This document shows positions 1,017 through 57,599 of a stretch of 64,000 bases of DNA, in pieces. The notes below the pieces were generated by a model. That model was not told the DNA's origin. It ran no database searches and saw only the letters and a list, made by a program, of their open reading frames with translations. Position 1 is the first letter of the stretch, and each line of letters starts with the position of its first letter. The position numbers and the translations under genes are program-made. Source of the stretch: Paraspadella gotoi (Eukaryota > Animalia > Chaetognatha); contig CM119264.1 of assembly GCA_051294375.1 (NCBI GenBank), positions 15,837,049 to 15,901,048 of the forward strand, read 5' to 3'.

Positions 1017-1271
1017 TGTGGCGGTATATTCACACCGCCTCAGGTCCACCATCGTTCAGCCAAATCCATTGGCTCAGAGGGGGAACACACCATCACAGGC
1101 GTAGTGTTCCATCCATAGTCCTTACGACTTCCCTCTGCGTTGGCAAAGCGAGACCGTCCTAAGGTAACCGCGCCTGTGACTGGATGCGTCACTGAGGGTC
1201 GGAAGCCCCCAAAGCCAACAGTGAGATGCCCCATCCCAATGGGCATCAAAGGCAACCCGGCTGTTGCCATA
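1017..1271 (+). mobile_element. Solo-LTR-like unit with Pol III boxes and twister-like ribozyme (family IV)
   Basis: Termini TGTGG...CCATA. A box TGGCTCAGAGG 1070-1080, B box GTTCCATCC 1106-1114. Second copy at 26165-26417. Confidence 0.75.
1139..1219 (+). ncRNA. Twister ribozyme, type P5 (best match to consensus)
   Basis: GTTGGC aaa GCGA GA CCG TCCTAAGG TAA CCGC GC C TGTGAC tggatgc GTCACT G AGGG TCGG AAGC CCCC aaa GCCAAC. Shows UAA, P2, T2 GC/GC, P3, P4 with loop UNNNAAGC, T1 CCG/CGG and closing P5. Predicted cleavage between 1165 and 1166. Confidence 0.78.
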
Positions 1272-4580: not shown

Positions 4581-4621
4581 CAAATGAATTCAATAGACCA
4601 AAAAATTTTGAACATTAGTTT

Positions 4622-4652
<31 letters not shown>

Positions 4653-4744
4653 TTTCCAACAAAGAATTGAGCAAGGATAGTGGTCAGATGTGAGGACAGG
4701 TGAAAGTAGGGGAAGAGAGAGCAAATGATTTTTGAAATTGGTGA

Positions 4745-4786
<42 letters not shown>

Positions 4787-5227
4787 CACAGGGATCAATA
4801 CATTAGGCAATGTACAACAGTGAAAAATTTTAGAAAAAACTAAATATTAACAAAAGTAATAATAAATTAATTGTTAGCTGATGATTGTTGGTAAGAGAAA
4901 ATGAAATAGAAGAATAAGTGATGAGGGATAGATAAGTTAAAGATAAGTGAAATAGTAAGGTAAGAAAAAAGCTCAAAAATGAGCTGACCCCCCCCCAGCC
5001 GGGCAAATGTGGGACGTTAACGATGTAGTCGGGTCATTTTTGAGCTTTTTTCTTACCTTACTATTTCACTTATCTTTAACTTATCTATCCCTCATCACTT
5101 ATTCTTCTATTTTCATTTTCTCTTACCAACAATCATCAGCTAACAATTAATTTATTATTACTTTTGTTAATATTTAGTTTTTTCTAAAATTTTTCACTGT
5201 TGTACATTGCCTAATGTATTGATCCCT

Positions 5228-5277
<50 letters not shown>

Positions 5278-5371
5278 TCACCAATTTCAAAAAATCATTT
5301 TGCTCTCTCTTTCCCTACTTTCACCTGTCCTCACATCTGACCACTATCCTTGCTCAATTCTTTGTTGGAAA

Positions 5372-5402
<31 letters not shown>

Positions 5403-5441
5403 AAACTAATGTTCAAAATTTTGGTCTATTGAATTCATTTG

Positions 5442-6298: not shown

Positions 6299-7605
6299 AG
6301 AAAAGCCTATTTTGAAATTTTTCGATTTTATAAGGATAGTACTATATATAAATATAGCCTACTGCAAAAATTAAAAAACATATAATTAATTTTTTTTACA
6401 AATTAATGTTCACTGATGGTATGTTGTTCATAATTGACTTTTAGAATTTTCGTATGTAACTTTCACTACGCCTTAATATTTACTAAGGCGGAACAAGGTA
6501 AAAACTAAGAGTTCTGTCATATAAATAACGTTAAAGTATCTCTGTGGGATAACGAAATTTTAAAAAAAATAAAGATTTTATCTATAGTTAATAACATAGA
6601 AGCATTTAAAGTTTATCGTATTACTATAAATCATGAAAATTTTATATTTCAAATTCAGAATTTTTAAAAACGGATTCGGGTAGAGCTTGAAAAAATAAAT
6701 AAAAAATATAATTACAAGAATTCCGAATTTTTATGTTTTATTGGTTAAAATTATCAAAAAATATAAAAATTATGGTATGATGATGATGATGATTTTTAAG
6801 GGTTTTTCCCTTATTTGACCCACTTATCATCGAAATATTGAAAAACGCATTTTACTTTTTGTAGACAACTTTTTATGGGCTATCTGAATCCGTTCTTCAA
6901 AAATAAAATTTTTACAAAAAATTTTTTTCATTGCCTATGCATTTATAAATATTTAAATACTTTAATGTCATACTGTGCTTCACTAGTTATAAATGTGATA
7001 GTAAATATTGATTAAGTATATGATGGACAAATGAATTTTATATGACAGAACTTCTAATGAAAAAATCATAATAAGATCATAATAAATATATTATATCAGT
7101 TTAATACATATTGATGATTCATAGGCCTTAATATACAATAGGAAAGATGATATAAAATGACTTTCGCCAGAACTGCTGCTGGCGCATTTTTGAGCATCAT
7201 TTTTGGGAATCAAGAATGATCAATTTGTTGAGAGAAAATACATTTGCATCTCCTGTAACCAGAGGTTTTGCGAGGAAAGCCTAGTTTTTGCGCAACAATA
7301 AAAATAAATATTGCTTTCTGTACTATTCCAATATTTTTCTTATTTGAAAGATTCCTTTTCCGTTTTTAGTTAGACTTACCCTTACAGTACCTAGATTTAA
7401 AAACTAAATTTTTTCTTTTTCGTATTTTCCATACAGTAAATATTTCAAAAAGCCTTGTTTTTTGGAATCAAATTCCCTATTTTTTTTCGGCCGATAGAAA
7501 AATAAAAATTTCGTCGAATACTGCTAATCCCTATTAAAGGAATTTTTTTCCTCTTCCGGACTCTTGGACTTTCACTAAGTCTACTATTCTTACCTCGCAA
7601 CTTAC

Positions 7606-8606
7606 CCCATGCACCTTGCAATGCTTGAATCTTCTCGGCCCGAAGTCGCTAGAAGCCGAGGAATCCATGTTCATTGAATGATACTCGGCGCCTAACCTCG
7701 TGGGTGGATGCCGCGTACGTTCATGGCTACAGTATTCACTCATTGGCGACGAGAAAGGCGTCGATGGAAGGACATTCGGCGAAACTTGTGACGTATTTAA
7801 GCCTTCAACGACCGATCCGCCCGATCGGTTCTCTATCTGGTTCACAGCCTCTCCACTCCAGAAGCACCATCCCGAATCGTGACTACAGGAGCGAAGACAG
7901 CCGACTCTAGTGACACCAGAGTCTTCCACGCCAGAATCCTCGGGCATTGGGCGACGATGACGAAGACCCTCGCGCGCGGGATCGTCTATCGGGCGAGGGG
8001 CGTCCACCTGCCTGACCCTAATGTTGACTTCGTCGTCTCCATCCCGAAAATCGGAGCGAAGGTCCCTCCTGTCTCGTTCCATCTGCGAAAATGAGGCAGT
8101 GTCGCAGTGGCGCAACATAGAGGCGACGCCGTGCTCGTTGATGTCATCGAGAACGTCTCGCGACGAAGTGGGACGCAGATCGCGAACGGGAGTAGAGCGT
8201 GGCTGGCTAAGTCCCCGCATTACACTGCGTCGACGATTTAGTTCCGAGTTTGTGGACGATGACGAGGGCGAATAATCGAGACGGAAGTCCGTCCCTTTAG
8301 ATCCCGATACGATCTGAGTGTGAATGAAGGCCAGGGAAAATGCCAGTGCTAAGGGAGTCAGGATCTCCGTCATAGTAAAGGCGTCCGGTTCAGCATCAAC
8401 CCTCTCGTCCAAGGCAGTGAGGCCTAAAACGACTACGAATAGACAATAAAGGAAGAGGAAAAAGGCCCAAACGGCGACGGAGAAGTGTTGTCGCCACCAA
8501 CGAAAATAGAGTGGAAAGAGGAGGAAGCGGAGCATTGACTTCTTGGTTAAAGCACCCCAACAAAATTGGGACTTTTGCTTCGGAAAGGGGCTGCCGCGAA
8601 CCAAGT
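7606..8606 (-). CDS. PHTF: PHTF-family gene, coding exon 2
   Basis: Acceptor ttcttcttcag|AC. Encodes DLVRGSPFPKQK...LTKKSMLRFLLFPLYFRWWRQ plus hydrophobic TM segments typical of PHTF. Phase-0 donor GGG|GTAAGT, with an alternative in-frame donor GAG|GTAAGA at 7594. Confidence 0.9.
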
Positions 8607-9886
8607 CTGAAGAAGAAAAAGCAAAAGTAGTATTCAAATCCTTATCGTTCGTAACCATTCATACCGTCGCGGTCGGAATAGGTTTCTTTGCAAAATAAGA
8701 ATTAAAATTACATATCGATTGATACGATGACGATTAATTGATGAAACGATCATGTCGCTTTATTGTTGAATTTAAGGGTTGAACTTAGGCAAAGATATTT
8801 TCTTAAGGTCCGGGATCACTCAATTCAAATTATAATAGCTAAAACCGAGCTCGGATTTCGAAAGGAGAGCTCCTGACGATTCCGAAAATGTATTCACTTT
8901 ACTATTTTTTCAAAGGCGTTATCGCTTTTTCGATTTTTTTGGTACTATATAAAATAAAGAAACCTATTTGAAGAGTTGCAGCCCAAACGGTAAGGCGGTT
9001 TCTCTGAAATTTGGCATGGATTACTTTTAGGTCACAAACTCCAATTCTATGAAAAGATACTTTCAAAATTTGCCTTCCTTCATAGAAAATTTGATTATTT
9101 TAGTCAATTTTTGGATAAATTCCTTGATATCTTTGAAACGAAAAACATTTTTCCAAAAACGCGCTCATAGAATCTCCCCCACCTTTCCTTTCTTGCCCAA
9201 TATATTTTTTTCTTCAAGAAGAGTCCTGTGGTTTGAGCTGCAACTCTTCGTTTTTAACTTCACTTCGTCAAGAAAGTTAAATTCTGTACTCATTACTTTT
9301 GCAAGATTCACCACAACATACACAAGCACGGGATGTGATGATGGAGTTTGTTCAACGCCGATGTCTTAAAAAAATGGCTTACTGTTTTTAATTTTTTTAA
9401 ATTCAGATTTGATTTTTTCTTCAGAGATTTCCTAGAAATAGGGCAACTATTTTATGATATAACATTTATATAAAGTAAAAAGTCAAATTGAAATAAATTC
9501 GATAAGTTTTTTAACTCATAAAACTCATAAAAGCATAAAAACCCATATGAAAAATGTGTAGAGTAGTTTGTTTTAGACTTATTAGTGATACAACTCCAAG
9601 TATGGACTTGTACCAAAGGAAGAATTAAATATAAGAAGTAGAAATTGAGCTTACTGTAAAGAATCAGTTTTAAGTTAAAAATTTGGTTGTAGAAATTTAG
9701 CTTACATTTAAAAAAATATTTTTCTCTTGAAAATCTAGTTTTACGAAGAAAAAAAATTGTTAAAATTTTTATGAACATTTTAGGTAGATTTTTAAAAGTT
9801 TTCGATTATTTTTAATAGAAAACCTCTTACAAGATGTGAGAAAATGATTAAGATACAGTAAATTAAGATTTCTACAATATTAGATT

Positions 9887-12800
9887 AATCTGAGTGAACT
9901 ATTCTGTGAATTCAAGTTGAAGCCTTTTGTTTTCCTTTTGTTAGTCTGGCTAACAAAAGAGGCCTTGCCGCCAACTGAATTATTTTGATTGTTTACTTGT
10001 AAACTGATTGCCCTCAGATTGATCAGACTGATTTTTCTCCTGATGAAATAAACTTGCTTCTACAATTATTTTCACAATGTTTTTACTTAATATTTCAAAG
10101 TAAGAAATACATTAAGTGATAAAGAAAAACCTTTACCCTCAAATCTGATTAAACAACCAATCAAAAATGAAACAATCAATTTGAAATCCAATGTGAGACT
10201 TTCCCTGCGATGAACTGTATCATCTTAGAACTATCACATCACATGTGTCAACTCTATCGGACGCCTCTAATCAACCTCAGCGGCCTTCCGATGACTTACC
10301 ACACCTGGTGAGCCCGACAATGAACAACAAGCCAACCTTCGAACGGGGCAGAGGAGCGACATTACCACTTCCGAGGTAAGACTGGGTGAAGAATTGGAAT
10401 TAAGCGTGATCACCCATTCCGCTCACACTTTTTCCACCTGCCCCATACACCCCAATATCCCGCTCATCTCGACAACGCCGACGAGCCGCAGGCCGACGCC
10501 GCGGCGCCGCAGCTCATCCCCAGCCTTCAGCGAGGACGACGGTCAAAACCAACGTCTTCAGGCCACCTCGACGCTGCTCTAGGTTTCAACGCTCAAAGAG
10601 TCGACGTCGCCTAATTGGAACGGCGACATGGCGACCGACCAACCGACCGACAACGCTGAGAAGAAGGGAACTACGCCACATAAACGACGAATTGCGCGCC
10701 GCACTGACGGCGGCGACTCGCCGCCTCGAGAGAGCGTCAAACACGGAAGCCCGACCTTCCGGAATTCGATTCATCCAACATCGAGATTTGGATTAGAAGA
10801 GTAGAGGCAGCTTACGTCCGCGCCGGGCATCTCCACACATGAAAAACAAATTCGCTTACCTCGAATCAAAAATTTGGATCAAAGTGGATCCCAAAATAAA
10901 ATCAGTTTCTATTCGGTGAAGCGACGGAGAGGCCTGGACCCAGTGTCCTTTCAATACTTAAGGATGAATATGGATTTACTCGGCGCCAACAAGCTACTCA
11001 CCTCCTCGACAACATCGACATCGACGGATCAAGCCGTCAAGGGCTCTGGCACTCTTAGAGGAGAAAACTCGGACTCTCACTCTCGACGACTTACGCAAGG
11101 AAAAATCCTTCAGGAACTGCCGACGGAAATCCGCCGGCAACTCGAGGAGAAGGCCGGAGAACTGACCGCCCGCGACTCTGTCAACTGGCAGATCTGGCAC
11201 TACGACAATAGGTAAACCAAAGATCTGTCAGCCGACTGCACAAGTCAACAACATCGAAGGCAACCATCAGCGCCGCCTACCGTCAGAACGGACGACGACG
11301 ACGACGACGACGACGACGCCGTCAATGCCATCGACCACTCCAAGCGGAAGAAGAGAAATGGAAAAGAGCGCCGGACAAAGTCAAAGAGAGAAACAAAAAA
11401 CTAAGCTTCTCACACTTTGCAGCAAGCATCTAAAATTCGGAGATAACGCCCGATCATGCGAACCGGGCTGCCTCAAAGTACAAAGAACTGCAAAAGCATC
11501 ATGAGGGAAACGGAAGAGGGGGACGCCGTTTGGTGAAACGCCGTCCCCCAGCCAGAATCATTTTCACCAGCAGCGAGCGACCTCCTTTACATCAGGGATT
11601 CAGAGAGCAGAGTGAAATGTTGGTAGACGGCGGCCGCTCCTTCTATCAATCATACCTCCACCCGCGAACAACGCCTGAAAGGACCAAATCCAGAGACAAA
11701 ACTCAGGCGGCGAACGGATCACCTATTAGCTGCTATGGTTCAGTCAACAAAACCGTCACACTCGGGAAAAGGCGATTTGAATACGATTTTCGTCGTCGCA
11801 GATGTCACCCAGCAATATTTTGGGAGCCGATTTCCTTGCAGAGAAACTTTTCTTGCTCCAACCACCGAGACGGCCTGTTAATGGACTTTACAGGATTATT
11901 CGACGATAGCAGCGTCGACATCCTCCGGAGCCACGACTCATGCGAATTTCGTCGATAGGAAAGGCGAGAGATACTATAATTATTAGAATCTTTCCTTCGC
12001 TTTCAACGCCGACATTTGAGCTCAAGGAGCCGAGACATGGAGTGACCCACTCAAATTCCGACAGAAGGCCGACCATGCCAGTCCCGCGCCCGCCGACTTG
12101 ATCCAGAAAAACTGCAGTAGCCAAAAAGGAGCAGAGAAAATGGTTTCCCTAGGCATTCGGGGAAAAGAGAAAATCGGAATGCGTCCTCGCCTCTCCACGT
12201 TAGTAGCGAAACCGGAGGGTTGGCGCTGCTGCGAGGAGACTATCGTTCGACTCAACGCGCAGACGATAGATGACCGCTATCCGGTCAAGCTTACTGACCG
12301 ACTTCAATGGCTCAACTTGAAGGCAAAGACTATCTTTTCAAAGATAGACCTACTTAAGGGCTATCATTCAGATACCGTAAATCCTGATGATGTGAAGAAG
12401 ATGCGGTCATCACCCCCTTTGGGTTGTACGTCTTTTCCCCGCTGCCCTTTTGGGCTAAAAATGCGGTGGCAAGAGGTTGTCCAACGCCTAATGGATGAGA
12501 TACTTGGGGATATCCCTCATACATTTGGTATACCTCGACGACATATTAGTAGCGTCACCGTCGCCACGAGGAACACATACAGGATCTCTCGAGCTGTCTT
12601 CAAGGCACTGGACGGCAGCGGTCTCGTCCGTTGGATACAAAGAAGTGTCTCCTGGGCCAGGAATTCGCTCGAATTCCTCGGTTTTCTCGTTCGACAGGAC
12701 GGGTACGCCCTCTACCGCCGAACGAGTACAGACTCTACGGGGAGACAACGAAGCCCACAACGATAAAGGAGCTCCCAGAGATTCCTCGGATGATCAATTA

Positions 12801-15800
12801 CTCCGTCGATTCATCCCGAAGGTCGCACATCGTTGTACGCCGCTTTATGAGGCACTCAGTGGAAAACCGAAGGACACTCAGATGGACTGACGACTCGAAA
12901 CAGGCCTTTTGAGGCAATAAAAGAAGGCCTGATACAGGCAGCTCTTGCTCCAACCACCCCGAACCGGCGCCGCAATTATTTGCATTACGACGGATGCCTC
13001 CGACCCACGCAGTCGGGGCCAGTGCTCGTGCAGAGGGGACCCAAAGGATGGAGTACCATTGGCATTCTTTTCAGCCAATTACAAAAAAACCCAAAGACTC
13101 CTGGCCCCCATTTTGATCGCGGAGTCTTTTCGGGATTTTGCCGCGCAGTCCAGCATTTCCCGGCATGGATTTGAGGGAAGAAGCTTTTACAATTATACAC
13201 TGACCACAAAGTCGCTCATCTCCGGGCCCTCAAGAAAAAGTCCGAACCTCAAACAGCGCGTCAGAGCTTACAGCTATCGGTAATCGCCGAATTCTCGACC
13301 GACATATCGCTATCTAAAAGGCAAAAGCTATGTCGTTGGCAGACGCCTTCTCGCCCCAACTCGTCGCCAGCAGCTGCCAGCATCATTGCAAACAGCCGAC
13401 AAAACTCCGAATCAAACCGAGAGGTCTCGAACAACCAAATCGACCACACCCGCCCAGGGCCATCGACGGCTGCCGTGCCAGAAAAGCGGAGTGAAAGCGA
13501 TGCCTTACTAACTTAATCAGTTTATTTCCGGGTACGTCCAAGCGTCATAGCTCTTCATTTCTCTCGTTTTTTTGTTTTTCAACGACCGTTACGCGATAGG
13601 TACGTTCGAACGGGAGATGGCCAGAGAGCAGGAGCCTCGACCGACTATCCGAATCTCTTGCGCACTGAATCACATATCGCGAGAACTAAAGGATCTGGGC
13701 CTGAATTTTCTAAGAGTAAAATAGCAACACAAGATCGCAGGGAAGTTAGCAGCTACTCCAGATTTGTCAATGAGTGGACCAGCAAATCAGACCTACTCGT
13801 CCCTTTGCAGCTATTGGCTGACGATTAATAAGGGTGGTCAGACGTCATCAGAGTGGACTTGGCCACCCTGGAGTAGGAGCAACCTGATACGAAAAGCGGT
13901 GTCAGGCAAAATTTCGTACAACCTGGCTCTCTTACCACATTGACATATTTCAGAACTGTCAAACACGTGGGCCGAGAACTGAGTGCATTCGAATGTCAAC
14001 AAGCAACAAGTGACAAGGCACGTAGTTCCCAGAGATTGTGTGAATACAGATCCGCCGCCCATGGAGACTTTCGAGCATAGTCACAGTCTAGACCCCCTCG
14101 TGTAAGATGCGCCACGTAGCTCGAAATAGGATTCAAGCTACCTCTTAACAATCGCGCTTGATCGATTCTCGCCGCTTGGTCCAACAGAAATCGATCCCGT
14201 TTAAAGACACTCTGTACGACAACAGTACTTGCATGCCTCAGCACAGAAATGGATTAGCACATATTTCGCAGTCCCAGCCGTAATCCACAATAGATGCCGC
14301 GGTACTCATGGTTCACTTCGTCTCTATGCGAGATCAATTGACACACAGTGGAAGGAATAAAACACCAGACAATTCCACTTGACTATCACCCTCAGTCTGC
14401 GAATGGGCCTCGTTGAACGGTTTTCACAGTGCGCGCTAAGGAATCTTCTCATGGCATTGGGGAGATACGGGGACAGACCGAGAATTGGTTCTGAAACTGC
14501 CCATGACCCTCTTAGCAGCAAGTGTCAGGACGCACAATAAAGGAGGACATCGGAGCGGCCTCCAGGGCTGCTGACCTCTGGTTTTTGGCGAAGGGAGATC
14601 AGCGTCCCATGCAGCATCTATTGGTAGCGACAGTCAAAACGATGAAGTTATTCTAAGAATCGTCATCGTTCAAAACCACTATCGCAGCCCCGCCGTCGAG
14701 ATTCGCGCGGCTAAACAACCCTTGAAACTACGAGCCAAGCTTCGCATTATCAGTCGACACGATTCAGTGCAACCTCCCGGCTAGCAAACCTGGAGACAGG
14801 GCTCGACATGTTGTGACCGAGAGGAGGGCATCAACCCACCACTGTCCTCCTTACGATGGCCCAATTTCGTTGCGAATGTGAAATATGACGATATTACAGC
14901 AAAGCCGAGAATGGGTATCGTAAGGCCAGGCGTGATCGCTTACATCCTATCGGAAATCAGACGACTGGCGAACGCGGTCGGCACCGGCTAGAAATTATAT
15001 CTAACGTTTTAAAACGGGCCGAGCAAACTACGGGTAAGCAAAGTACACATACCTACGCACACGAGACTTTATCTGCCAAGCGCGGCACTGTAAATGGCCC
15101 CTCTATAACTACTTGTCGACCGGCATCGGCTTATAATGCTGGACAGTATACGACCTAGAACACCCTACAAGTTTCTTCGCCATGCATTAGACTCCAAACG
15201 ACAGAATGCCCGAAGCTCAGCGAGACCAGCACCCACTACATGGCAAGCGTCAGATCGACTTGTCGCGCGAACCGCCCGACGGCTCTTTCCATCCTCCTCC
15301 TCCCCTCTTACTCTCTACTGACCTCGCCACCAAAGCATCAGGCATCTGAATCAAGACACCTAGTCAACACTCGTACCCAACGACTTTGTGCTAGGTGCCG
15401 TCCCCTCCTCCTCACTTCTCTCACATCCATTATTCCCTCCGGGGCCCATCACTCTCCTTCTGCCTTTCGGACTTACTAGGCTCACGCCGTTCTCGCAATT
15501 CGCACCTCAAATCTTACAAGTATCTTAAGAGAAAGCGATCACAAACAACAACAACTTCGCCGAAAGATAAAATGATGGTTACTATTACAGATCCAAGACC
15601 ACGAGGAATTCCCCGGACGTAAAAGGTGATTAAAAGAGAGCTAACCACAACAACAACAAAAACGACAGGACAAAGCAAGGGAAAACAAACCAGAACAACA
15701 ATCGCCTCCAGCTGCATTTGTTATACTTTACCATTATAGTATTAAGAGAATGCTTCGTCACAAGAGAACAAAGAACGACAAAACCATAGGAACAACAAAC

Positions 15801-16578
15801 AAAAATGTAAAACAAACCCCTGAGGTTAACCGCGCCGGAACATTTGGCTATTTGCCTGTTTCTAGCTAATCGCTCCGATTTCTTCTTTGCGCCTGATTTT
15901 TGAAATGTTATATTCTATTCTTGCCATATTTTTTGAAATTTTAGAATGTTGTGAAAGATGTTAATGTTAAAGTCCAGTCAAGATAGATCTTCAAGTTGGT
16001 ATTGATAATGCGTTATATACCCGAATATAAATATTACAGTTTTAAATTATATTTTTACTCGAGATACATCCACTCCCGGTATGGACGACAAACATATTAT
16101 TGAAATATTATTAGCCCATATATTCCAACAGGGGGCTTTGCGGCCAATCTGAGTGAACTATTCTGTGAATTCAAGTTGAAGCCTTTTGTTTTTCTTTTGT
16201 TAGTCTGGCTAACAAAAGAGGCACTTGCTCGCCGCACTGAATTACTTTGTAGTTATATTGTGTTACTTGTATATTACTGATTGACCCTGGCAGTATGATC
16301 AACTGATTTTTCTCCTGATGAAATATACTTGCTTCTACAATTATTTTTCACAATGTTTTTACTTAATATTTTCAAAGTAAGAAATACATTAAGTGATAAA
16401 GAAAAACCTTTACCTCAAATCTGATTCAAACAACCAATCAAAAATGAAACCAATCAATTTGAAATCCAATGTGAGACTTCCCTGCGATGAACGTATGCAT
16501 CTAATTAACTATCAATCATCACGTGTCAACTCTATCGACGCCTCTAATCAAACTCAGCGGCCTTCGCATGAATTACCA
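9887..16578 (+). mobile_element. Ty3/gypsy LTR retrotransposon, CsRN1-clade-like, frameshifted, antisense in PHTF intron 1
   Basis: Direct repeats (LTRs) at about 9887-10303 and 16139-16578. PBS TGGTGAGCCCGAC 10306-10318 (resembles the tRNA-Trp PBS TGGTGACCCCGAC). Gag CHCC motif CSKHLKFGDNARSCEPGC 11418-11471. Protease LVDGG, RT KIDLLKGYH and YLDD (12531-12542), RNase H TTDAS. G-run PPT at about 16131. Confidence 0.93.
11505..11549 (+). promoter_or_regulatory. Candidate -1 ribosomal frameshift signal at the gag-pol junction
   Basis: Slippery heptamer GGGAAAC, 6-nt spacer, then hairpin GGGGGACG-C-CGTTT-GGTG-AAACG-C-CGTCCCCC. Confidence 0.75.
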
Positions 16579-19832: not shown

Positions 19833-20456
19833 TAGGGTGGAGTGATGAAAAGATTGAGCGATGGAACAATGTTTTTTTGCTGCCTTTGTATATGTAATAA
19901 AAAATAATTAAGCCCTTTTTCAAAAAAAAAAATGCATAACAGTATCATTAATTGAATTTTTTTTATAATAATATCCTTATAAAATCATAAAATTTCAAAA
20001 TCATATTTTCTTAATTTTAAGAACAGTTTTGGATTCGCCGGAAAAAACTGAAAAACTTTTGTAAAAAATGTTATATGATATTTTTAAGTTAAAGCTGCAA
20101 AAAATGACCAAAACGTTTCATCATATAATAGTTTCTACTACAAAGTATAAAAAAGTAGAGAAATTGACCTTTTTTTCCCATTTTTGATGCTGAAGACAAT
20201 AAAATTTTTAATAACATTTTATATTTTTGATCTAACTTTTTATGAAAAATCAGAATGTTTAATAAAAATTTTAAAAAATTAATTTGAAAATTTAGGATTT
20301 TATAAGAATATTACTATAAATATATTGTAATTAATGATACTGTTCCCCAAACAATATAAGCAAAATATTTTTTGTACTCCTTAATCATACTATCTCACGT
20401 CTAAATATCCTTGTTTGATCACTCAAATAAAATTTATGTTCCCCAGTGCTCCACTA
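19833..20456. mobile_element. hAT-like MITE (624 bp)
   Basis: Terminal TAGGGTGGAG / CTCCACTA and 8-bp TSD TTCTTCAG (19825-19832, 20457-20464). Confidence 0.85.
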
Positions 20457-20735
20457 TTCTTCAGTGCTTATTAAATAATTTAATGAATTTCACTATAATA
20501 TCTATATATTAGATTTAATTTATATAAATCTTTATATAAGTATATTCTTTTATAATGTATTGGGGAGAGGGATGTTAGTGTTGTCTTCTGGAAATTGAGG
20601 GAGCATCTATACAACACAAGGTTAAAAATTACTTACTGCCCTAGATTGAAAATTCAAAATATTGAAAAGATAAAAAAAAACTTTTTTTTTATTATTATTT
20701 TATTATTCTCTATATTTCTCTCTCAATCAACTCTG

Positions 20736-20766
<31 letters not shown>

Positions 20767-21226
20767 AATTAACTCATCGCGTCAATAAATGACTAGCATC
20801 GCATCAATGAATGACTATCATCGCATCAATGAATGACTATCATCGCATCAATGAATGATTATCATCCGATCAATGAAGTACTATCATCACATCAATGAAT
20901 GATTATCATCGCATCCATCATTTGGTTATCATCGCCTCAATCCTTTGGTTATCATCGCATCAATATATGGTTATCATCGCATCAATATTTGGTTATCATC
21001 GCATCAATATTTGGTTATCATCAAAAGCAGGCTCGATCCCTATTGCTTTTAAGATTTTTAAATATGTTTTGTTTTACATTTTATCAAAACAAACAAATAT
21101 CCTCTATTTTATTTTATGTCTCCTTCTCTCTCTCTCTCACTCCGTCCTCTCTTTTTATGCAATTGCGACGATCTTTATGCTTTTAAGATTTAAATGGTAA
21201 TAAGCTAACTTGGTCAACTTGCATAA

Positions 21227-21853
21227 TAGAGTGGAGCACTGGTGAACATAAATTTTATTTGAGTGATCAAACAAGGATATTTAGATGCGAGATAGTATGA
21301 TTAAGGAGTACAAAAAATATTTTGCTTATATTGTTTGGGGAACAGTATCATTAATTACAATATATTTATAGTAATATTCTTATAAAATTATAAATTTTTA
21401 ACATAATTTTTTTAAAAATTTTTATTAAAGATTCTGATTCTTCACAAAAAGTTAGATCAAAAATATAAAATATGTTATTAAAAATTTTCATGTCTTCAGC
21501 GTCAAAAATGGAAAAATAAGGTTAAATTCTCTACTTTTTTATACTTTGTAGTAGAAACTATTATATGATGAAACTTTTTAATCATTTTTCGCAGCCTTAA
21601 CCTAAAAATTTCATGTAACATATTTTACAAAAGTTTTTCAGTTTTTTCCGGCGAATCCAAAACTTTTTAAAATTGAGAAAATATGATTTTGAAATTTTAT
21701 GATTTTATAAGGATATTACTATAAAGAAAATTCAATTAATGATACTGTTATGCAAATTTTTTTTGAAAAAGGGTTTAATTAATTTTTATTACATATACAA
21801 AGGCAGCAAAAAAATATCGTTCCATCACTCAATCTTTTCATCACTCCACCCTA
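21227..21853. mobile_element. hAT-like MITE, same family, opposite orientation (627 bp)
   Basis: TIR TAG(A/G)GTGGAG and 8-bp TSD TTGCATAA (21219-21226, 21854-21861). Confidence 0.85.
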
Positions 21854-23534
21854 TTGCATAATTTAATCAACTTGCATAATTTGGTTAACTGACATAATTT
21901 GGTTAACTGACATAATTGGGTCAACTGACATAATTTGATCAATTAAGATAATTTGGTCAACCGGCATAATTTGGTCAACTGGCATAATTTTATCAACTGG
22001 CCTAATTTGGTCAACTGGCATAATTTGGTCAACAGGCATAATTTGGTCAACTTTAAGAATTTGGTCAACTGGCATATTTTTGTCAATTTGCATAATTTAG
22101 TCAATCAATCAATCAATCAGAGAGAGATAGAGAGAGAGAAACTTTAAAAAATTCAAATAAATGTGTCTTTTGGGTTTCTAATTTGAACTCTTTTCCACTC
22201 CTTTATAAAGCTTTATCACATACTTTCCTACCCACACACAAAATTCAATTTCGATTTATCTATCCAATTTTTAATAAACATAATAATTATGAGTAAATTT
22301 AAGTAAAAATACTTCAAGTAAATATGACTTTTGTTTTTTCCATTTTAACTCATTTCCACTCGCACGATTCCATCGAAACTTTATATCCAGCTCAATCACA
22401 CACTTCCCTACCATCATTTAAAATTTCAAGTCAATTGCCCTATCTACTCATGAGCAATTGGCGTTCAAATAGTGAAATATATTTTTTTGTTTTTTCCATT
22501 TAAACCAATTTCCACTCGCACGATTCCCTCGAAACTTCATATCCATCTCAAGCACACAGTTTCCTACCCACACACAAAATTTCATACCAATCCATCCATC
22601 CAATCACGAGTAATTGGAGTTTTTTGCTAAGGTGTGACGGACGGACGGACGGACAGACAGACGGACGGACGGACATCGTTTTTTTTGCATAATTTATCAT
22701 AATTCGATGTTCTGACATGATATAAGTGTGTGCCCGACAATATTGAGGGGGCGGACCGACGGACCGACAAAGTGAATTATAGAGTCGGGATCTGCTGATA
22801 AGCAGATCCGACTAAAAATAAAAGAGAAAATTTGTTTGTTTTGATAAAACGTAAACAAAACATATTTAATAACTGTCCAGACTCAATTTTAAGCACATCG
22901 ATGATGAGAAGCTGTATATAAATTTTCAGCTTCATACACCCAAATTTAATCATAAAAAAGGCGATCTATAATTTGGAACACCGACGACAACAACGACGAC
23001 GACGCCACTTATGCGCAAAAGCGTTACAATATCGTTACAATATCGTCGCAAACGCTAAGCGATTGCAACGATAAAAAGAGAGAAAAGTTGTTTGTTTTGA
23101 TAAAATGTAAACAAAACATATTTAATAACTGTCCTGACTCAATTTTAAGCACATCGATGATGAGAAGCTGTATATAAATTTTCAGCTTCATACATTCAAA
23201 TTTAATTATAAAAAAGGCGATCTATAATTTGAAACGCCAACGACGACGACAATGACGCGCCACTTATGAGCAATATCGTCGCAAACGCAAAGCGATTGCA
23301 ACGATAAAAAATCTTTAATGTAGTTGGAAAGATTTGAATATTTTAAAATTGACAAAAAGTATTTTCGACATTGGCTTTGAGTGCTGATAAAATGTGATAT
23401 AATAGTTTGATTTAAAAAATAAAGATATCATATTAAACTGTAAGAACTTCTAGATCCAAAGAGTACAGCAAATACATTTTTTTTTTATTTGACAGTACGC
23501 TTGACACTTTGTAATTCACGATTGAGATACGCAC

Positions 23535-24502: not shown

Positions 24503-26164
24503 CTACAAGAATAATCAACATTAAGACACAGCTAAATTAACATATAATAAAACAAGTTTGAGCAAATCGGATCTGCCCACGATCATTAGCGGTACTTAAT
24601 TAAACATTAATTGACAATAGTTTGGTCAACTGACATAATTTGGTCAACTGACATAATTTGGTCAACTGACATAATTTGGTCAACTGACATAATTTGGTCA
24701 ACTGGCAGAATTTGGTAAATCAATCAAAGAGATTGAGAGAGGGAAACTTTTAAAACTTCAAATAAATGTGTCTTTTGGTTTTCTAATTTAAATTACTTTC
24801 CTACCCACACACAAAATTTCATTTCAATTTATCTATCCAATTTTAAATAAATATAATAATTATGAGTAAATATAAATAAAAATACTAAGTAAATATGACT
24901 TTTATTTTTTCCATTTAAACTCATTTCCACTCGCACGATTCCATCAAAACTTTATATCCATTTCAATCACACACTTTCCTACCCACACACAAAATTTCAT
25001 TCCAATCCATACATCCAATCACGAGTAATTGGAGTTTAATGCTAAGGGGGGATGGACGGATGGACGGATATCATTTTTTTTGCATAATTTATTATAATTT
25101 GGTTCTGATATGATAATAATGATTTCGCGACAATATTTTGGGGTGGGAACGACAAAGTAAATTATAGAATCGGAATCTGCTGATAAGCAGGATCCAAACT
25201 AAAAAAATGTCCCCGTCGGTTAGTCCGTCTTTCCGTCCCCCCTTAGCATTAAATCCAATTACTTCAAGTAATATGACTTTTGTTTTTTCCATTTAAACTT
25301 CCACTCGCACGATTCCATCAAAACTTTATATCCAGCTCTATTACACACTTTCACAAAATTTCATTCCAATCCATCCATCCAATCACGATTAATTGAAGTT
25401 TAATGAAAAGGTGGGACAAACCTTCAGACAGACGGACATTGTTTTTTTTTGCTTAATTTCTCATAATTTGATGTTCTGACATGATTTAAGTGACTGCCCG
25501 ACAACCTTTTAGGGTGGGACCGACGGACCAACAAGGTGAATTATAGAGTCGGAATCTGCGATAAGCAGATCTGAATAAAAATTAATTTATTTGATTCGAA
25601 ATGTTTGTTTTTGGGTCTGACCAAGATAAAAGCATCGACGATGATGGCGACGATGAAAATAATGCCGATAAAGATTGATTTGATTAATAGACTTTTTTTC
25701 CGCAACAAATGGTGATAGAAACTTCGGAAAACCACCATTCGATTCGAAATAAAATCCTCTTTCGAATGATGTGCTATATGATTAACTTATTTACAAATTT
25801 CCAAGTTCTACGTGCGTCAGATTTATTATGGATTTAATTGAATGTAAAACTCCGATGTAGGTGTAATTTATTACAAATTAATAAAAAACTTGTTAATAGT
25901 ATAAAACAAAATATTTTTAAACTGAAGAGACATTAATGATTGTTGTATGTTTGTTAGAAATGATTTTAAATCAAACAAATTCTTTTCGTGAATATCTGAA
26001 TCACGTCAATTGGTATTAGTCTCAACTTTAATGATTTTATATTATCTTGACTCTCATTGGTCGAATTCTACCAATAGTAGTTAATGATTGAATTCTCAAT
26101 AATTTTAAAGAAGATCTCTCTTCTCATTGGTCCATTAAATTTAGTTTTTGTATAAAAGAAAGGG

Positions 26165-26417
26165 TATGGCAACAGCCGGGTTGCCTGTGATGGCCATTGG
26201 GATGGGGCATCTCTCACTGTGGGCTTGGGGCCTTCCGACCCTCAGTGACGCTTCCAGTCACTGGCGCGGTTACCCTAGGACGGTCTCGCTTTGCCAACGC
26301 AGAGGAAGTCGTTAGGACTGTGGATGGAACACTACGCCTGGGATGGTGTGTTCCCCTCTGAGCCAATGGTTTTGGCTGACGGATGGTGGACGTGAGCGGT
26401 GTGAATATACCGCCACA
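26165..26417 (-). mobile_element. Second family IV solo-LTR-like unit, in myosin light chain intron 2
   Basis: Reverse-complement copy of 1017-1271, flanked by the 4-bp direct repeat AGGG (26161-26164, 26418-26421). Twister-like fold at 26219-26298 with an altered L4. Confidence 0.75.
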
Positions 26418-34775: not shown

Positions 34776-35139
34776 AGCCTGTAGTGATGTTCATCCCCGT
34801 GTTAGCTGCGCTTTTCATTATATTCGCTACTTTTATCACTGGCGAGGTCACCAGTGGGGGGACTGGCGACATCGCAAAGCCCTGGCGATAAATTCGCCAG
34901 GCGATACATCGCTATTTGAATGAACTACAACTTGGGTTATAGAGTAATATTAATTTTTTTAATTTATTCAATTTTTTAAAAAAATATGTAAATTTTTGTT
35001 TGAACAGGTGCTTAATACAAATTTCTTAACCACCTTACTGACTTTCCATGATTACAGTTACAACATTCCGATGCTGCAGCAGCAGCATTTTCAAAGCTTC
35101 TGTCACAGTCATAATTGATATAATATGACTATAGTAGCG

Positions 35140-35601
35140 GTAGTATTTCATACCCCGCTACTCGTCCGAGAATCAGCAGCACCTATGGCGCCGGAGGAGC
35201 ACGAGCTCCTCCCAACCCAAAGGAGTTGGGTTCGCGCCCTACTGATTCACCTAAGTAAAAGCGGGACGGGGCGTCGAACCCACCTGTAGTGACGGACTAC
35301 AGCCCGATCCGACGTTCGGGACCTTGGGTGCAACGGACGGTGAACTGCTCGCGGCATCGTCTTCCACATTGGTGAGCCCACACTAACACGCTGGTACGTT
35401 AATACACCTCTGCCTGGGCATGTTAACCCACCTCTGCCCTCGACCATTGCGTGTGAAGACGGGAGCAGGAATAGGAAGGTCCTCCTAGAGTGCTCGGGCA
35501 CAACGCGTGCATCATTGCCATCACACTTGCGCGGATGTGGGATGCCTTGGGGGGATGTGTAGTATTTCATACCCCGCTACTCGTCCGAGAATCCGCAACA
35601 C
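35140..35601 (+). mobile_element. Non-autonomous TRIM with tRNA-like Pol III boxes and a twister-like ribozyme in its LTR (family II); 3' LTR truncated
   Basis: 5' LTR (T)GTAGT...TTCCACA 35140-35368. PBS TGGTGAGCCC at 35370. PPT GGGGGGA 35549-35555. Second LTR starts TGTAGT at 35558 and repeats about 35-43 nt of the first. A box 35186-35197, B box 35229-35238. Confidence 0.82.
35248..35330 (+). ncRNA. Twister-ribozyme-like motif, type P5 (family II)
   Basis: P5 CACCTAAG/CTTGGGTG, GA-CGG (T1), GAA, AC (T2), P3 TGTAGT/ACTACA, P4 CCCGA/TCGGG with loop TCCG-AC-GT. Confidence 0.65.
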
Positions 35602-38019: not shown

Positions 38020-38251
38020 TGAAGAGACAGTAATTATTGATAAGTGTTAATGACAGAACCGTTCAATATAAGCAGTCCCGAGCTTCGGATCAGGCTGTAA
38101 CACCATAGTTACAGGCGGGTTAAGCCACCCCGTCCCTCTTAACTGCCAGACGACCACCGGGCTAGAACCCGGACCTTTTGGGTTGGAGGCGAATGACTTC
38201 CTCCGGCACCAATGGCGCGGATGAACGGTTGGTGGATTTTAGGCCACCATA
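38020..38251 (-). mobile_element. Family I solo-LTR-like unit
   Basis: 232-bp reverse copy of 57368-57599 with 5-bp TSD ACAAT (38015-38019, 38252-38256). Twister-like fold at 38071-38147. Confidence 0.78.
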
Positions 38252-43024: not shown

Positions 43025-43781
43025 GTAGACATTGTTGTGATTCTTTCTTTTTCGTTGTGTTTGTGTTTAAGGAATAACAGATTTTTAATGTGTAACAACA
43101 AATTTTTATTTCATAGGGACATGTTTCGACTCTGTGGTTTAGAGTCTTCATCAGCATTTGATTCAATCAACAATTTTCTCTTTAATGTTAGTTTTTAGAG
43201 AGAGAGAGAGAAAGAGAGAGAGACAAAAAGAGGGAGATTCCAACAAAGAATTGAGTAAGGACAGTGGTTAGATGTGAGGACAGGTGAAGGTAAGGGCAAG
43301 GAAGAAGATAAATTGGTTGAAATTTTGAAAGGTGAAAAAATTGAGGGAGAGAGAGAGAATAACAGAGGCAGAGAAAATAGTTACATTTGGTAATGTACAA
43401 CAAATTAAAATGGACAAACCTAATGTTAATCTGGTAGTAACAAATCAATTAATAACTTAGTTTAACTATTAAGGATGAAATATGAAAGGGAAAATAAGTT
43501 GTTAGGGATAGTTAAGTGAAGATGTTAGTGAAATTAAGATAAAGAGCTCAAAAAAGAGCTGTTACTACTAGATTAAAATTAAGTTTGTCCATTTTTACTT
43601 TGTTGTACATTACCAAATGTAACTATTTTCTCTGCCTCTGTTATTCTCTCTCTCTCCCTCAATTTTTTCACCTTTCAAAATTTCAACCAATTTATCTTCT
43701 TCCTTGCTCTTAGCTTCACCTGTCCTCACATCTAACCACTGTCCTTTCTCAATTCTTTGTTGGAATCTCCCTCTTTTTGTC

Positions 43782-43816
<35 letters not shown>

Positions 43817-43942
43817 AAAAACTAACATTAAAGAGAAAATTGTTGATTGAATCAAATGCTGATGAAGACTCTCAACCACAGAGTCGAAACATATCCCTAT
43901 GAAATAAAAATTCGTTGTTACACATTACAAATATGTTATTCC
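43025..43942. mobile_element. ORF-less Penelope-like element with inverted pseudo-LTRs and two hammerheads
   Basis: Arms about 43069-43560 and 43564-43944. Hammerheads at 43118-43154 (-) and 43859-43895 (+). 14-bp TSD TTGAAAAAAGATTT (43011-43024, 43943-43956). Confidence 0.82.
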
Positions 43943-44686
43943 TTGAAAAAAGATTTAAAATTTTAAATAATTTACTTTTGACACTCTTAATTGAACCAAG
44001 GCTGGGCAGCTTACTTTTTATGTTAGTGCTTTCGTAAGTATATCATTCTCTTCATTTTTTTAAGGGCTTTCTGAAGATATTAATATTGTTAATATTTTAA
44101 TAAATACTTTGTTTAAAAAAAAATAAAAGTTCAAAAAAAAAAAGAATTTAAAAACAGTGAGTTGGAAAATGAAACCCGATTTGACAAGCCAACTTTCTCC
44201 ACTCATTGTTAATATTAATATTACTTTTTATGTTAGTGCTTTTGTAATTATATCAATCTCTTCATATTTTTAAGGCTTTCTGAAGATATTAATATTGTTA
44301 ATATTTTAATAAATACTTTGTTTTAAAAAAATGCTAAAAGTTCCAAAAAAAAACATTTAAAAACAGTGAGTTTGAAAATGAAAGCCGATTTTACAAGCCA
44401 ACTTTCTCCACTCATTGTCAAGGCATATCTTAACTGATCAATATAAAATTTTAACACATAAATAGTTTGTATTTTCTACTCAACTATTTTTTAAAATCAA
44501 TGAAATAACCACTGGTTTGCATATTTCTACCGGCGCTTGTAAAATTGTCACCATGTACAAATTAATAATACATTTGAATTCAACAAAAATATTCAGAAAT
44601 CGAAGATCAAAAATACTTAAAGCAGATCTATGTAAACAGATGTAAGTAAAATGGGATAACAAATGAAATGACTTCCTGTATTATAG

Positions 44687-50700: not shown

Positions 50701-50710
50701 TTTTTTTGCA

Positions 50711-50779
50711 TCAGCAGGGCGCGAACCCGAGTCCTTTGATTGGAGGTGCTCGCGCTACCTCCGAGGCTCCCGGACGAGT
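50711..50779 (-). repeat. Fragment of a family II-like LTR (tRNA-like head only)
   Basis: Reverse complement ctcgtccg...cggagg..gcgcgagcacctccaatcaaagga.tcgggttcgcgccct.ctga aligns with 35160-35245. Confidence 0.65.
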
Positions 50780-50904
50780 TCAGCTTCTCTATCTCTTTTT
50801 TAATTATATATTGCTCTCTCTCTCTCTTTTTCTCCGTCGCTATTGCTTCTGATTCTGATTTGTGACGTCGTCGTCGTCGTTGTCGTTGGCATCACACTTT
50901 TGAT

Positions 50905-51575
50905 CTTGCCAACTTGCATACTTTTTAAACTTGCATAATTTTTCAACTTGCATAATTTTATTCATAATTTTTCAACTTGCATAATTTTTAACTGCATAAT
51001 TTTAACTTGCATAATTTTTCAACTTGCATAATTTTTAACTTACTTGCATAATTTTTTAACTTGCATAATTTTTTAAACTTGCAAATTTTTTAACTTGCAT
51101 AATTTTTAACTTGCATAATTTTTAACTCATAATTTTTTCAACTTGCTTAATTTTTTCAACTTGCTAATTTTTCAACTTGCTTAATTTTTTCAACTTGCTT
51201 AATTTTTTCAACTTGCTTAATTTTTTTAACTCGCATAATTTTTTGCAACTTGCATTATTTTTTAACTTGCATAATTTTTTCAAAAACTTGTATACTTTTT
51301 TCAATTTGCATAATTTTTTTCACTTGAAAAAAATATGCTAGTTGAAAAAATTATGCAAGTTAAAAAAATTATGCAAGTTAAGAAAATTATGCAAGTTAAA
51401 AAAATTATGCTAGTTGAAAAAATTATGCAAGTTAAGAAAATTATGCAAGTTAAAAAAATTATGCTAGTTGAAAAAAATATGCTAGTTGAAAAAATTATGC
51501 AACTAGCATAATTTTTTTAACTTGCATAATTTTCTTAACTTGCATAATTTTTTCAACTTGCATAATTTTTTTATG
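50905..51575. repeat. About 18-bp minisatellite (AACTTGCATAATTTTTT)n with an internal inversion
   Basis: Tandem units. Orientation flips at about 51325-51500. Related 19-bp array at 58118-58226. Confidence 0.9.
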
Positions 51576-52311
51576 AAATTGGTACAACCAATATAAAAAT
51601 TATCCATTCATTTAATAAATAAGCTATCTTGCCCCTGACTTTGGACAGGCTTTGGTGGTTTAAAGCCTCCATCACTCTTACAAGATAATGACATAGCAGG
51701 TCCATGCAAGCTTTCAATCAAGACTCTCTCACAATCTCGTTTATTCACTCCCAGAGTACCTGGCTTTTTTATCAATGAAGTGGAAAATATTTCAAAGAAT
51801 GTTTCAATTGTATGAAAAGACCACTCCCTTAAGTATTAGTAATTTTTTATACTTGCATAATTTTTTTAACTTACATAATTTTTTTAACTTGCAGCATTTT
51901 TTCGACTTTTAACTATCTAGTTATCGAGTTTCATTAGTGAGGCAGTGAGGAAGTTGAAATGTGTGTCCATTTTCTTTGTTTCATATCGATTAAAATATTT
52001 TTTGTTTGAATTTCCATTTAATTATGATTTACTGCAATATGCAAATTAGATTATGGTAATTTTCTTTGATAGTAAAAAAAGGCGAGATCACTATACTTTT
52101 AAGATTTTTTTTTTTCTATTTAAACTCATTTGCACTCGCACGATTCATCGAAACTTTATATCCAACTCGGTAACACACTTCCCTACCCACACACAAAATT
52201 TCATTCCAATCCATCCATCCAATCACGAGTAATTGGAGTTTTTTGCTAAGGTGGGACGGACAGACAGACGGGCATAATTTATTTTTGCATAATTTATCAT
52301 AATTCGACATT

Positions 52312-52618
52312 TGTGGATAAGGCGCTACGTGGGCTGAAAATGACTGTCCGTAACTTCTATAACCCCCTCTAGCAGCCATGGAAAGGGTCCCTGGGCTTGG
52401 AACCAGGCTTGAGGGTTTGCCATGCCCCCAAGGCGGCTTACAGCCGTCCTCACGGCGTGAGGCTCACGCTTCCCGCAGGGTAGGTACCGGGTTGGGATTG
52501 AACCCGGTACCCAGTGGTCATGAGCTGATGGCTTTACTCAATGAGCCACCGGGTCACAACTGAAAGTGTCATGCTTCTAGGCGAGGTGAACCTAGGCATT
52601 AGGCAATGCCCGACTACA
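52312..52618 (-). mobile_element. Solo-LTR-like unit with tRNA-Met-like head and twister-like motif (family III), inserted in a HINE
   Basis: Termini TGTAG...CCACA on the minus strand, 4-bp TSD CATT (52308-52311, 52619-52622). A box TGGCTCATTGAG, loop CTCATGA, B box GGTTCAATCC. GA-GGA...TAA GCC GC C, P3, P4 CCTGG/CCAGG with loop TTCCAAGC (about 52385-52474). Confidence 0.78.
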
Positions 52619-54499: not shown

Positions 54500-55400
54500 T
54501 ATGGTGAACTTAAATCCACCAACCGTTCATCAGCAGCCATTGATGCAGGCTCTGGTTAAAATTTGGCATATTGTGTGCCAGATTTGGCATAATTTCAGAC
54601 CGTTTAGCCAGTAAAAAAATGTTCTGGCATATAGCATACAATCTGGCATATTCAAAATGTGAAAAAAATTTTAGGTTTTTCGATCTACAGCATTGGACAG
54701 AGTATGAAAAACACTTCCTTTGGCAATGTAAATCTGTATTAAATATGTTATTTGCTTATTTTATTATTTATTTCTTTGATAACAATAACAATAAAGCCAA
54801 AGTATTTGGTTAATACCGATTTTCCTCTGAGATGCTTGTGTAGTTCAGTAATACTAGTAATAGCATGTTAAAGCAACTTTCCAAGAGCAAAATACTATGA
54901 CGTCGGTTGGTTGGTCTGTTTGAAAATTACTGCTGCAAAACACCTTTTACAGGACTTGACCGGTTATATGGCTCATCGCTTAAGCATTAAGAATTAATCA
55001 ATTCACAAAAAATCTCATTTTTTTGGTCTTTTTGTTTTTATCTGTCTTAATAATTTTACATAGGCTCTAATAATAATCATTTTTCTGTACTCTTGTAATA
55101 GTTTTGCATTAAATTAGCTAAAATATAATTTGGCATAATATTTAGCATACTAAAAAAAAAACTAACCATTTTTAGCATAATTTAGGGCGCTATCTGGCAC
55201 ACGTTTTTTCTGCAGAGTTTTAACCAGAGGATGCAGGAGGTAAGTCATTCGCCTCCAAAACCAAAGGTCCGGGGTTCTAGCCCGGTGGTCGCATAGCAGT
55301 TAAGAGGGACGGGGCTCTTAACCCGCCTGTAACACAGTGTTACAGCCTGATTCGAAGCTCGGTTCAGTCACTAACTCATAGCAATTATTACCGTCTCTTA
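54500..55400 (+). mobile_element. Family I solo-LTR-like unit interrupted by a MITE
   Basis: 5-bp TSD AGTAC (54495-54499, 55401-55405). The halves 54500-54549 and 55238-55400 rejoin into a family I unit. The 3' strand of twister P5 is deleted. Confidence 0.78.
54550..55229. mobile_element. MITE with 8-bp TSD (680 bp)
   Basis: TIR CTCTGGTTAAAA/TTTTAACCAGAG and TSD GATGCAGG (54542-54549, 55230-55237). Confidence 0.85.
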
Positions 55401-57367: not shown

Positions 57368-57599
57368 TATGGTGGACCAAAATCCACCAACCGTTCATTA
57401 GCGGCCATTGGTGCCGGAGGCAAGTCATTCGCCTCCCAACCCAAAGGTCCGGGGTTCTAGCCCGGTAGTCGCCTAGCAGTTAAAAGGGACGGGGCGCTTA
57501 ACCCGCCTGTAACATGGTGTTACAGCCTGATCCGAAGCTCAGGGACTGCTTATATTGAACTGTTCTGTCATTAACACAATAATTATCACTGTCTCTTCA
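57368..57599 (+). mobile_element. Solo-LTR-like unit with tRNA-Gly-like head and twister-like motif (family I)
   Basis: Termini TATGG...TTCA, flanking AACT repeat. A box 57409-57420, B box 57453-57462. Twister-like fold 57475-57550 (P5 AGCAGT/ACTGCT, P3 TGTAAC/GTTACA, P4 CCTGA/TCAGG, loop TCCGAAGC). Confidence 0.78.

Follow-up and report, generated by a model that had tools for sequence, protein, structure and literature searches.

The closest described systems to the elements considered here are the Helenus TRIMs and the plant LTR retrozymes. Helenus TRIMs (TRIMp3) are described as short non-coding LTR elements with a tRNA-like segment in the LTR, a PBS, a polypurine tract (PPT), and many solo copies (Kojima 2024, PMC10886601). 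In that account, animal Helenus elements make a 4-bp TSD and their gypsy helper is inferred from the PBS, a Trp case included; no helper is reported there for Cassandra. Plant LTR retrozymes carry the same ribozyme, a type III hammerhead, in each LTR, have a tRNA-Met PBS, and make a 4-bp TSD; their helper is inferred only from the LTR end with the PBS and from the PPT with the LTR start (Cervera 2016, PMC4918200). Among possible helpers, the CsRN1 clade of gypsy elements, which contains PwRn1 and AgCR, is defined by a CHCC gag, a tRNA-Trp PBS, and a 4-bp TSD (PMC2582038).

Here we describe a 64,000-nucleotide stretch of DNA from the chaetognath Paraspadella gotoi (hereafter the window), in which a CsRN1-like gypsy copy and a TRIM have the same LTR end and PBS. 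A preliminary description of the window had proposed that elements of the former kind supply reverse transcriptase and integrase to the latter. Of the two, the passenger is of most interest, since it is a TRIM of the Helenus type whose LTR has a twister-like fold.

The gypsy copy (9887-16578, + strand) begins with a 5' LTR (9887..10303) that ends CCACA and has a shorter left end than the 3' LTR. After a 2-nt spacer follows the PBS TGGTGAGCCCGAC (10306..10318), identical at 12 of 13 positions to the PBS of L124-L127, a CsRN1-like family from another host. The gag CX2HX9CX3C (CHCC) motif (11418..11471) is exact, lies upstream of the protease region, and aligns with the motif of L124 gag; judged by this motif, the copy is CsRN1-like. 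The PR-RT-RNase H region (11605..13364) was matched in that domain order by tblastn, and the integrase was seen only as short motifs compared by eye. A polypurine tract (16127..16135) precedes the 3' LTR (16139..16578), which starts TGCGG and has a shorter right end than the 5' LTR. The RT piece matches Ty3 RT and has 331 protein matches, of which the closest shows about 60% identity; none of the 120 relatives listed bears an element name. The best relative matches the PR-RT-RNase H region in all three frames, and the copy, being frame-scrambled, therefore has no intact ORF as assembled. The scrambling also accounts for the Pfam search of its stop-free pieces (five ORFs, then 32 of 37 pieces), which returned nothing except one irrelevant weak match; when the CHCC-bearing piece served as the query of a profile search, only 2 matches came back, both weak and of low complexity. 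In its CHCC gag, probably Trp-type PBS, and PR-RT-RNase H order the copy is like the CsRN1 clade, from which it differs by a G at position 7 of the PBS and by having neither a clean TSD nor an intact ORF (PMC2582038).

Aligned with each other over 439 columns, the two gypsy LTRs show 13 substitutions and 22 gap events. Much of the damage to the copy is probably assembly noise, since only two gaps separate the 5' LTR from short-read contigs and the 3' LTR agrees with them less closely. The insertion site is a very high-copy host repeat, and both junctions are ragged, with no clean TSD. AATC was considered as a TSD and rejected, because it also occurs inside the start of the 3' LTR and is absent from the empty host-repeat form seen in loose contig ends. 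In the repeat that flanks the copy (9700-9886 and from 16579), the empty form is five letters longer at the site and has a short word in common with the left part of the gypsy LTR, which suggests either an irregular insertion or an assembly seam. At least one further gypsy family, about 85-90% alike and with a different LTR-end/PBS stretch, falls on the same region in the contigs. Elsewhere, the window has an open frame (7534-8655, - strand) that matches the N-terminal domain of PHTF1/2 (Pfam PF12129, E 1e-24) and is probably a host-gene exon; a search for longer relatives of this exon found none. It also holds 18-bp tandem arrays joined to a dispersed repeat, together with several MITE-like long inverted repeats (21825-22160, 24600-24760, 50900-51900, and 59450-60180; 4600-5420, 20020-21670, and 43060-43950).

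The junction between LTR and PBS is what links the gypsy copy to the TRIM. The 10-mer TGGTGAGCCC occurs exactly twice in the 64 kb when both strands are scanned, and in none of 100 shuffles; both sites lie directly behind an LTR ending in CCACA. In the gypsy copy, CCACA (10299-10303) is followed by CC and TGGTGAGCCCGAC; in the TRIM, CCACA (35364-35368) is followed by T and TGGTGAGCCCAC (35370-35381). The perfect match between the two PBSs covers 10 nt, letter 11 being G in the one and A in the other, and the spacer is 2 nt long in the window gypsy versus 1 nt in both the TRIM and L124. The gypsy junction is spanned by a single contig in each of three DNA runs, which come from two studies, and in the contig from run X1 all differences (3 substitutions and 5 gaps) lie outside it. 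The TRIM PBS (35370-35380) shows no indel and no listed substitution in the contigs, with 6 weaker substitution rows outside the list. That the two elements share the LTR end CCACA and the PBS, as the preliminary description had claimed, is thus confirmed by the double occurrence of the 10-mer and by the contigs. Their presence in one window, which the same description had put forward, adds nothing to the case for a partnership.

The TRIM, here family A, consists of a 236-bp 5' LTR (35133..35368, + strand) with a tRNA-like segment and a twister-like fold, a 1-nt spacer, the PBS, a G6 polypurine tract (35549..35554) placed 3 nt ahead of the 3' LTR, and a remnant of that LTR (35558..35601). Because the remnant is cut short, the copy has no usable TSD pair. 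Non-coding, with a PBS, a PPT, and an internal part of 189 bp, family A falls within the size (below about 1 kb) and structure given for animal Helenus. Its LTR bounds are marked by loose contig ends at 35134/35368, which number 42/41, 43/40, and 31/27 in the three DNA runs.

Three further families are present as solo or solo-like units. Family B (52312..52618, - strand, TGTAG...CCACA) has the tRNA-like and twister-like parts and an exact 4-bp TSD, AATG (CATT on the + strand), and paralogous copies of its host repeat are found without the insert. Both the CCACA end and the 4-bp TSD had been reported before for this unit; they hold, with the correction that the CCACA end is read on the minus strand only. 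Family C comprises 57368..57599 (+ strand, TATGG...CTTCA), with an exact 4-bp direct repeat, and 38020..38251 (- strand), with an exact 5-bp direct repeat. Family D comprises 1017..1271 (+ strand, TGTGG...CCATA), flanked by a 4-bp repeat with one mismatch, and 26165..26417 (- strand), flanked by an exact 4-bp TSD. For families B-D the repeat is thus an exact 4 bp in three of five units, 4 bp with a mismatch in one, and 5 bp in one. The flanks of the two family D copies resemble each other (GCC(C/T)T ... CCCTT), a possible sign of target preference. Family A and family C are related in their LTRs (local score 67, reached by 0 of 100 shuffles). Further pieces of family C lie at about 55230-55400 and 54500-54550, and neither a full-length copy nor a PBS of this family was found within the 64-kb window.

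All six tested small units contain a GGTTC B-box-like motif. tRNA-like calls were obtained in 5/6 small units at a relaxed threshold only, with 0 at the default threshold (family D, 0/2). Self-priming by the tRNA-like part of the LTR was rejected, the best complement being 4-6 nt long. At 50707-50763 (- strand) there is a piece of this segment from family A that lacks the twister-like part. A run presumed to be RNA shows a summed-depth peak of about 5- to 10-fold at the LTR tRNA-like segment (35197-35238), which one or a few deep contigs may explain. The gypsy LTR has almost no cover in that run, and no RNA run was listed for the gypsy stretch, observations to which we attach no weight.

Median summed depth, which is not the same as copy number, is 341-453 times that of the gypsy copy over the family A LTR and 19-34 times over the internal part, and the LTR reaches 10-22 times the depth of its own internal part. 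Read from depth only, family A is very abundant and mostly solo. The fact that most units stand alone and carry a tRNA-like head would also fit SINE-like units that are moved by a non-LTR retrotransposon and bear the PBS incidentally, and twister ribozymes have been reported at the 5' ends of RTE elements (PMC7761336). We consider such an origin very improbable. The element at 35133-35601 has an LTR, a PBS, and a PPT, after which a second LTR begins; the ends of the solo units are fixed and flanked by 4-5 bp repeats, and an A-rich tail is absent; and the contigs break at both LTR ends, with the excess of LTR over internal depth given above. For family A, a SINE-like nature is largely refuted.

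All four small families combine a tRNA-like segment with a twister-like fold. In family A the fold, which is like twister P5, occupies 35248..35330 (+ strand), with cleavage predicted between 35276 and 35277, and has no Rfam match; that a P5 form of twister exists is documented (PMC6765202). With the general twister numbering and with a descriptor and parser that were written after these sequences had been seen, a P5-type descriptor found 4 units in the window versus 1 match in 100 shuffled windows, and a relaxed twister descriptor found 3 units versus 1 in 60 shuffles. On the same basis, 7/7 cores could be parsed, with T1 paired in 7/7 (four triplet pairings), T2 in 6/7, P4 in 7/7, and UAA in 6/7. 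The T2 pseudoknot is once AC/GT instead of GC/GC, and the P2 helix has a mismatch in all seven cores. Where Rfam twister models matched, scores were below the gathering threshold (16.8 bits versus 37.6; 16.4 versus 67.2), the weak match of family D being to twister-P1 at 16.4 bits. Two other small units had no twister match, and the Rfam scans of the small units gave no hammerhead. The family A copy does not conform to the twister pattern at two positions, 35276 and 35313; at both, the letter that the pattern calls for is carried by nearly all of the contig depth. Minimum free energy (MFE) folding of the TRIM core recovered P3 and P5, but not P4. A MAFFT alignment of the cores misplaced families B and D and was dropped for the pair counts. 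We regard the fold in the LTRs of the small elements as likely to be a twister variant, for which self-cleavage is predicted. Metazoan retrozymes are described as lacking LTRs, in a paper that mentions twister at RTE ends only (PMC7761336).

A scan for loci related to the gypsy copy returned 20 in genome_contigs and 1 in viral_contigs (21 in total), the viral matches being distant (0 and 1 loci). L124-L127 are four copies of one CsRN1-like family from another host, with a DUF7041 domain and a CHCC motif that is imperfect; gag and pol form a single ORF. All four carry the canonical PBS TGGTGACCCCGAC, behind a 1-nt T spacer like that of the TRIM. The three copies that have both ends show a 4-bp TSD, and the CsRN1-like lineage therefore makes the TSD length seen at the solo units. 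Among the 21 related loci, a Trp-type PBS was found only in these four, the rest having no upstream DNA or belonging to other clades. L124-L127, L134, L138, and L139 are gypsy-type elements, several of which have LTR pairs and TSDs; the contigs in which they lie are filed as bacterial assemblies and presumably represent eukaryotic contamination. Because the related family in another host carries the canonical GACCCC PBS (TGGTGACCCC), the GAGCCC common to the window gypsy and the TRIM is, at the level of sequence, a real local trait, and the earlier view of it as a departure from the usual GACCCC stands.

The ends of the small elements point to the same lineage. Over the 8 terminal bases, families A, B, and D agree at their right ends with the window gypsy at 6/8 positions and with L124 at 3-4/8, whereas the left ends of the small families match the window gypsy at 3-5/8 and L124, the foreign CsRN1-like element, at 5-7/8. 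Family C fits at neither end (right end 4/8 to the window gypsy). Immediately after its PBS, the TRIM sequence bears a loose resemblance to the CsRN1-like tail. Beyond the junction there is no similarity between gypsy copy and TRIM (the best local score was 26, and 15 of 100 shuffles scored as high), and shared sequence is described as not required for trans-mobilisation (Kojima, PMC10886601). From these comparisons, the helper of the TRIM is probably some family of the CsRN1-like gypsy lineage, acting in trans. The lineage, rather than the family in the window, is indicated because the right ends come nearer to the window gypsy, and the left ends and the spacer nearer to L124. Thus, the CsRN1-like helper first proposed is supported as regards the lineage, by the CHCC motif, the 4-bp TSD and GACCCC PBS of the relatives, and the right ends of three of the four small families, but not as regards the family, for which left ends and spacers fit poorly.

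That the window gypsy family (9887-16578) is itself the helper is doubtful. It has GAGCCC and the CCACA right end in common with the TRIM, and it looks young, its 5' LTR being two gaps away from the contigs and its LTR-LTR differences being mostly indels that are probably assembly noise. However, the left ends agree at only 3-5/8 positions, the spacers and the 11th PBS base differ, and the two elements have no internal sequence in common. The depth of the family, with the reservation that depth is not copy number, lies about 350-450 times below that of the TRIM LTR and 19-34 times below that of the TRIM internal part, its copy in the window has neither a clean TSD nor an intact ORF, and at least one other related host family, about 85-90% alike, is found on the same region.

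The significance of the shared PBS depends on the origin of GAGCCC. Either the host tRNA itself ends in this way, or both elements inherited a mismatch from a CsRN1-like ancestor; we hold the two to be about equally probable. Ty1 and Ty3 are described as inheriting the parental PBS strictly, and a shared mismatch can therefore mark descent in Ty3-type elements; the notion that the PBS is reset from the tRNA in each cycle was dropped on the same ground (PMC7472051). In a metagenome tRNA scan, the 126 matches listed that end in GTCGGGCTCA comprise at least 69 Lys, at least 6 Arg, at least 1 Ile, and 50 uncalled genes and include no Trp; most of them look prokaryotic, and the result says nothing on the host. 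Natural tRNA genes with this end thus exist (76 of the 126 matches listed are called Lys, Arg, or Ile), and the PBS might merely mirror a host tRNA ending in GGGCUCACCA, so that any element primed by it carries the same PBS and the helper belongs to another gypsy clade. The ACA end, which is generic among LTR elements (PMC2582038), and the 4-bp TSD, which is common to all animal Helenus whatever their primer (PMC10886601), would both agree with this. Nevertheless, we find a helper from another clade unlikely, as the TRIM ends resemble CsRN1-like ends (the right that of the window gypsy, the left that of L124), as does, loosely, the sequence behind the TRIM PBS, and as a Trp-type PBS is a hallmark of CsRN1 (PMC2582038).

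With a CsRN1-like helper, a model for the propagation of the small elements can be proposed. Transcription by Pol III would start within the tRNA-like segment; in family A, neither the LTR nor the internal part contains a T4 run, which is weak evidence for Pol III. The twister-like fold would then cut each LTR at one site, the equivalent of 35276/35277, yielding a unit RNA of about 425 nt without terminal redundancy. Because this product would have no terminal repeat, it would need to circularise before reverse transcription, as plant retrozymes do. It would be packaged with the CsRN1-like RT, RNase H, and integrase, which would act in trans, and would be primed by the same tRNA as the gypsy element, likely Trp. 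Combining these steps, we tentatively entertain, as a possibility with rather more against it than for it, an animal lineage of LTR retrozymes. Such a lineage would comprise four or more TRIM families in which every LTR had a tRNA-like head used by Pol III and a P5 twister that is active. Its members would have reached very high copy through unit-length circular RNA copied in CsRN1 gypsy particles, and they would share with their helper an inherited PBS mismatch to the host tRNA-Trp.

How new is this? The partner logic has already been published for both Helenus TRIMs and plant retrozymes, and a partner claim alone is ordinary. ETn and MusD, which we take to be a non-autonomous/autonomous pair, invite a further comparison. 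As may be so in the present case, they are related elements, and primer-mismatched PBS variants are common among them; they differ in being retroviral, in having a PBS that is partly reset from the tRNA, and in that their host tRNA is known (PMC7472051). The main text of Kojima 2024 (PMC10886601) contains no mention of twister or CsRN1, and the string TGGTGAGCCC was not found in the text of its supplement, where line breaks can hide matches. In CC-licensed PMC and bioRxiv full text, judged mainly from listings, we found no report of a twister-bearing animal TRIM. An animal LTR element that combines a Pol III-like head with a twister-like ribozyme of predicted activity is, within that literature, unreported.

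In its anatomy, family A follows the Helenus TRIMs: it is short and non-coding, its LTR includes a tRNA-like segment, and it has a PBS, a PPT, and many solos. Wasp Helenus families have a T spacer, as in the TRIM, and a Trp PBS, and their LTRs end in TTACA and not in CCACA (PMC10886601); the small elements of the window have ends of the form CCA(C/T)A, unlike Helenus. With the plant LTR retrozymes the small elements have in common a ribozyme-like fold within the LTR and, at most solo units, a 4-bp repeat, whereas the type III hammerhead and tRNA-Met PBS of the plant elements are replaced by a twister-like fold and a tRNA-like head in an animal element, known here from DNA anatomy (PMC4918200). 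The helpers of TRIMp3 and of the retrozymes are inferred only, and with a named clade and a PBS variant common to both partners, a single genome suffices to test the question. Should the twister prove active, these elements would represent an animal counterpart of the plant LTR retrozymes, with a different ribozyme and a promoter of their own.
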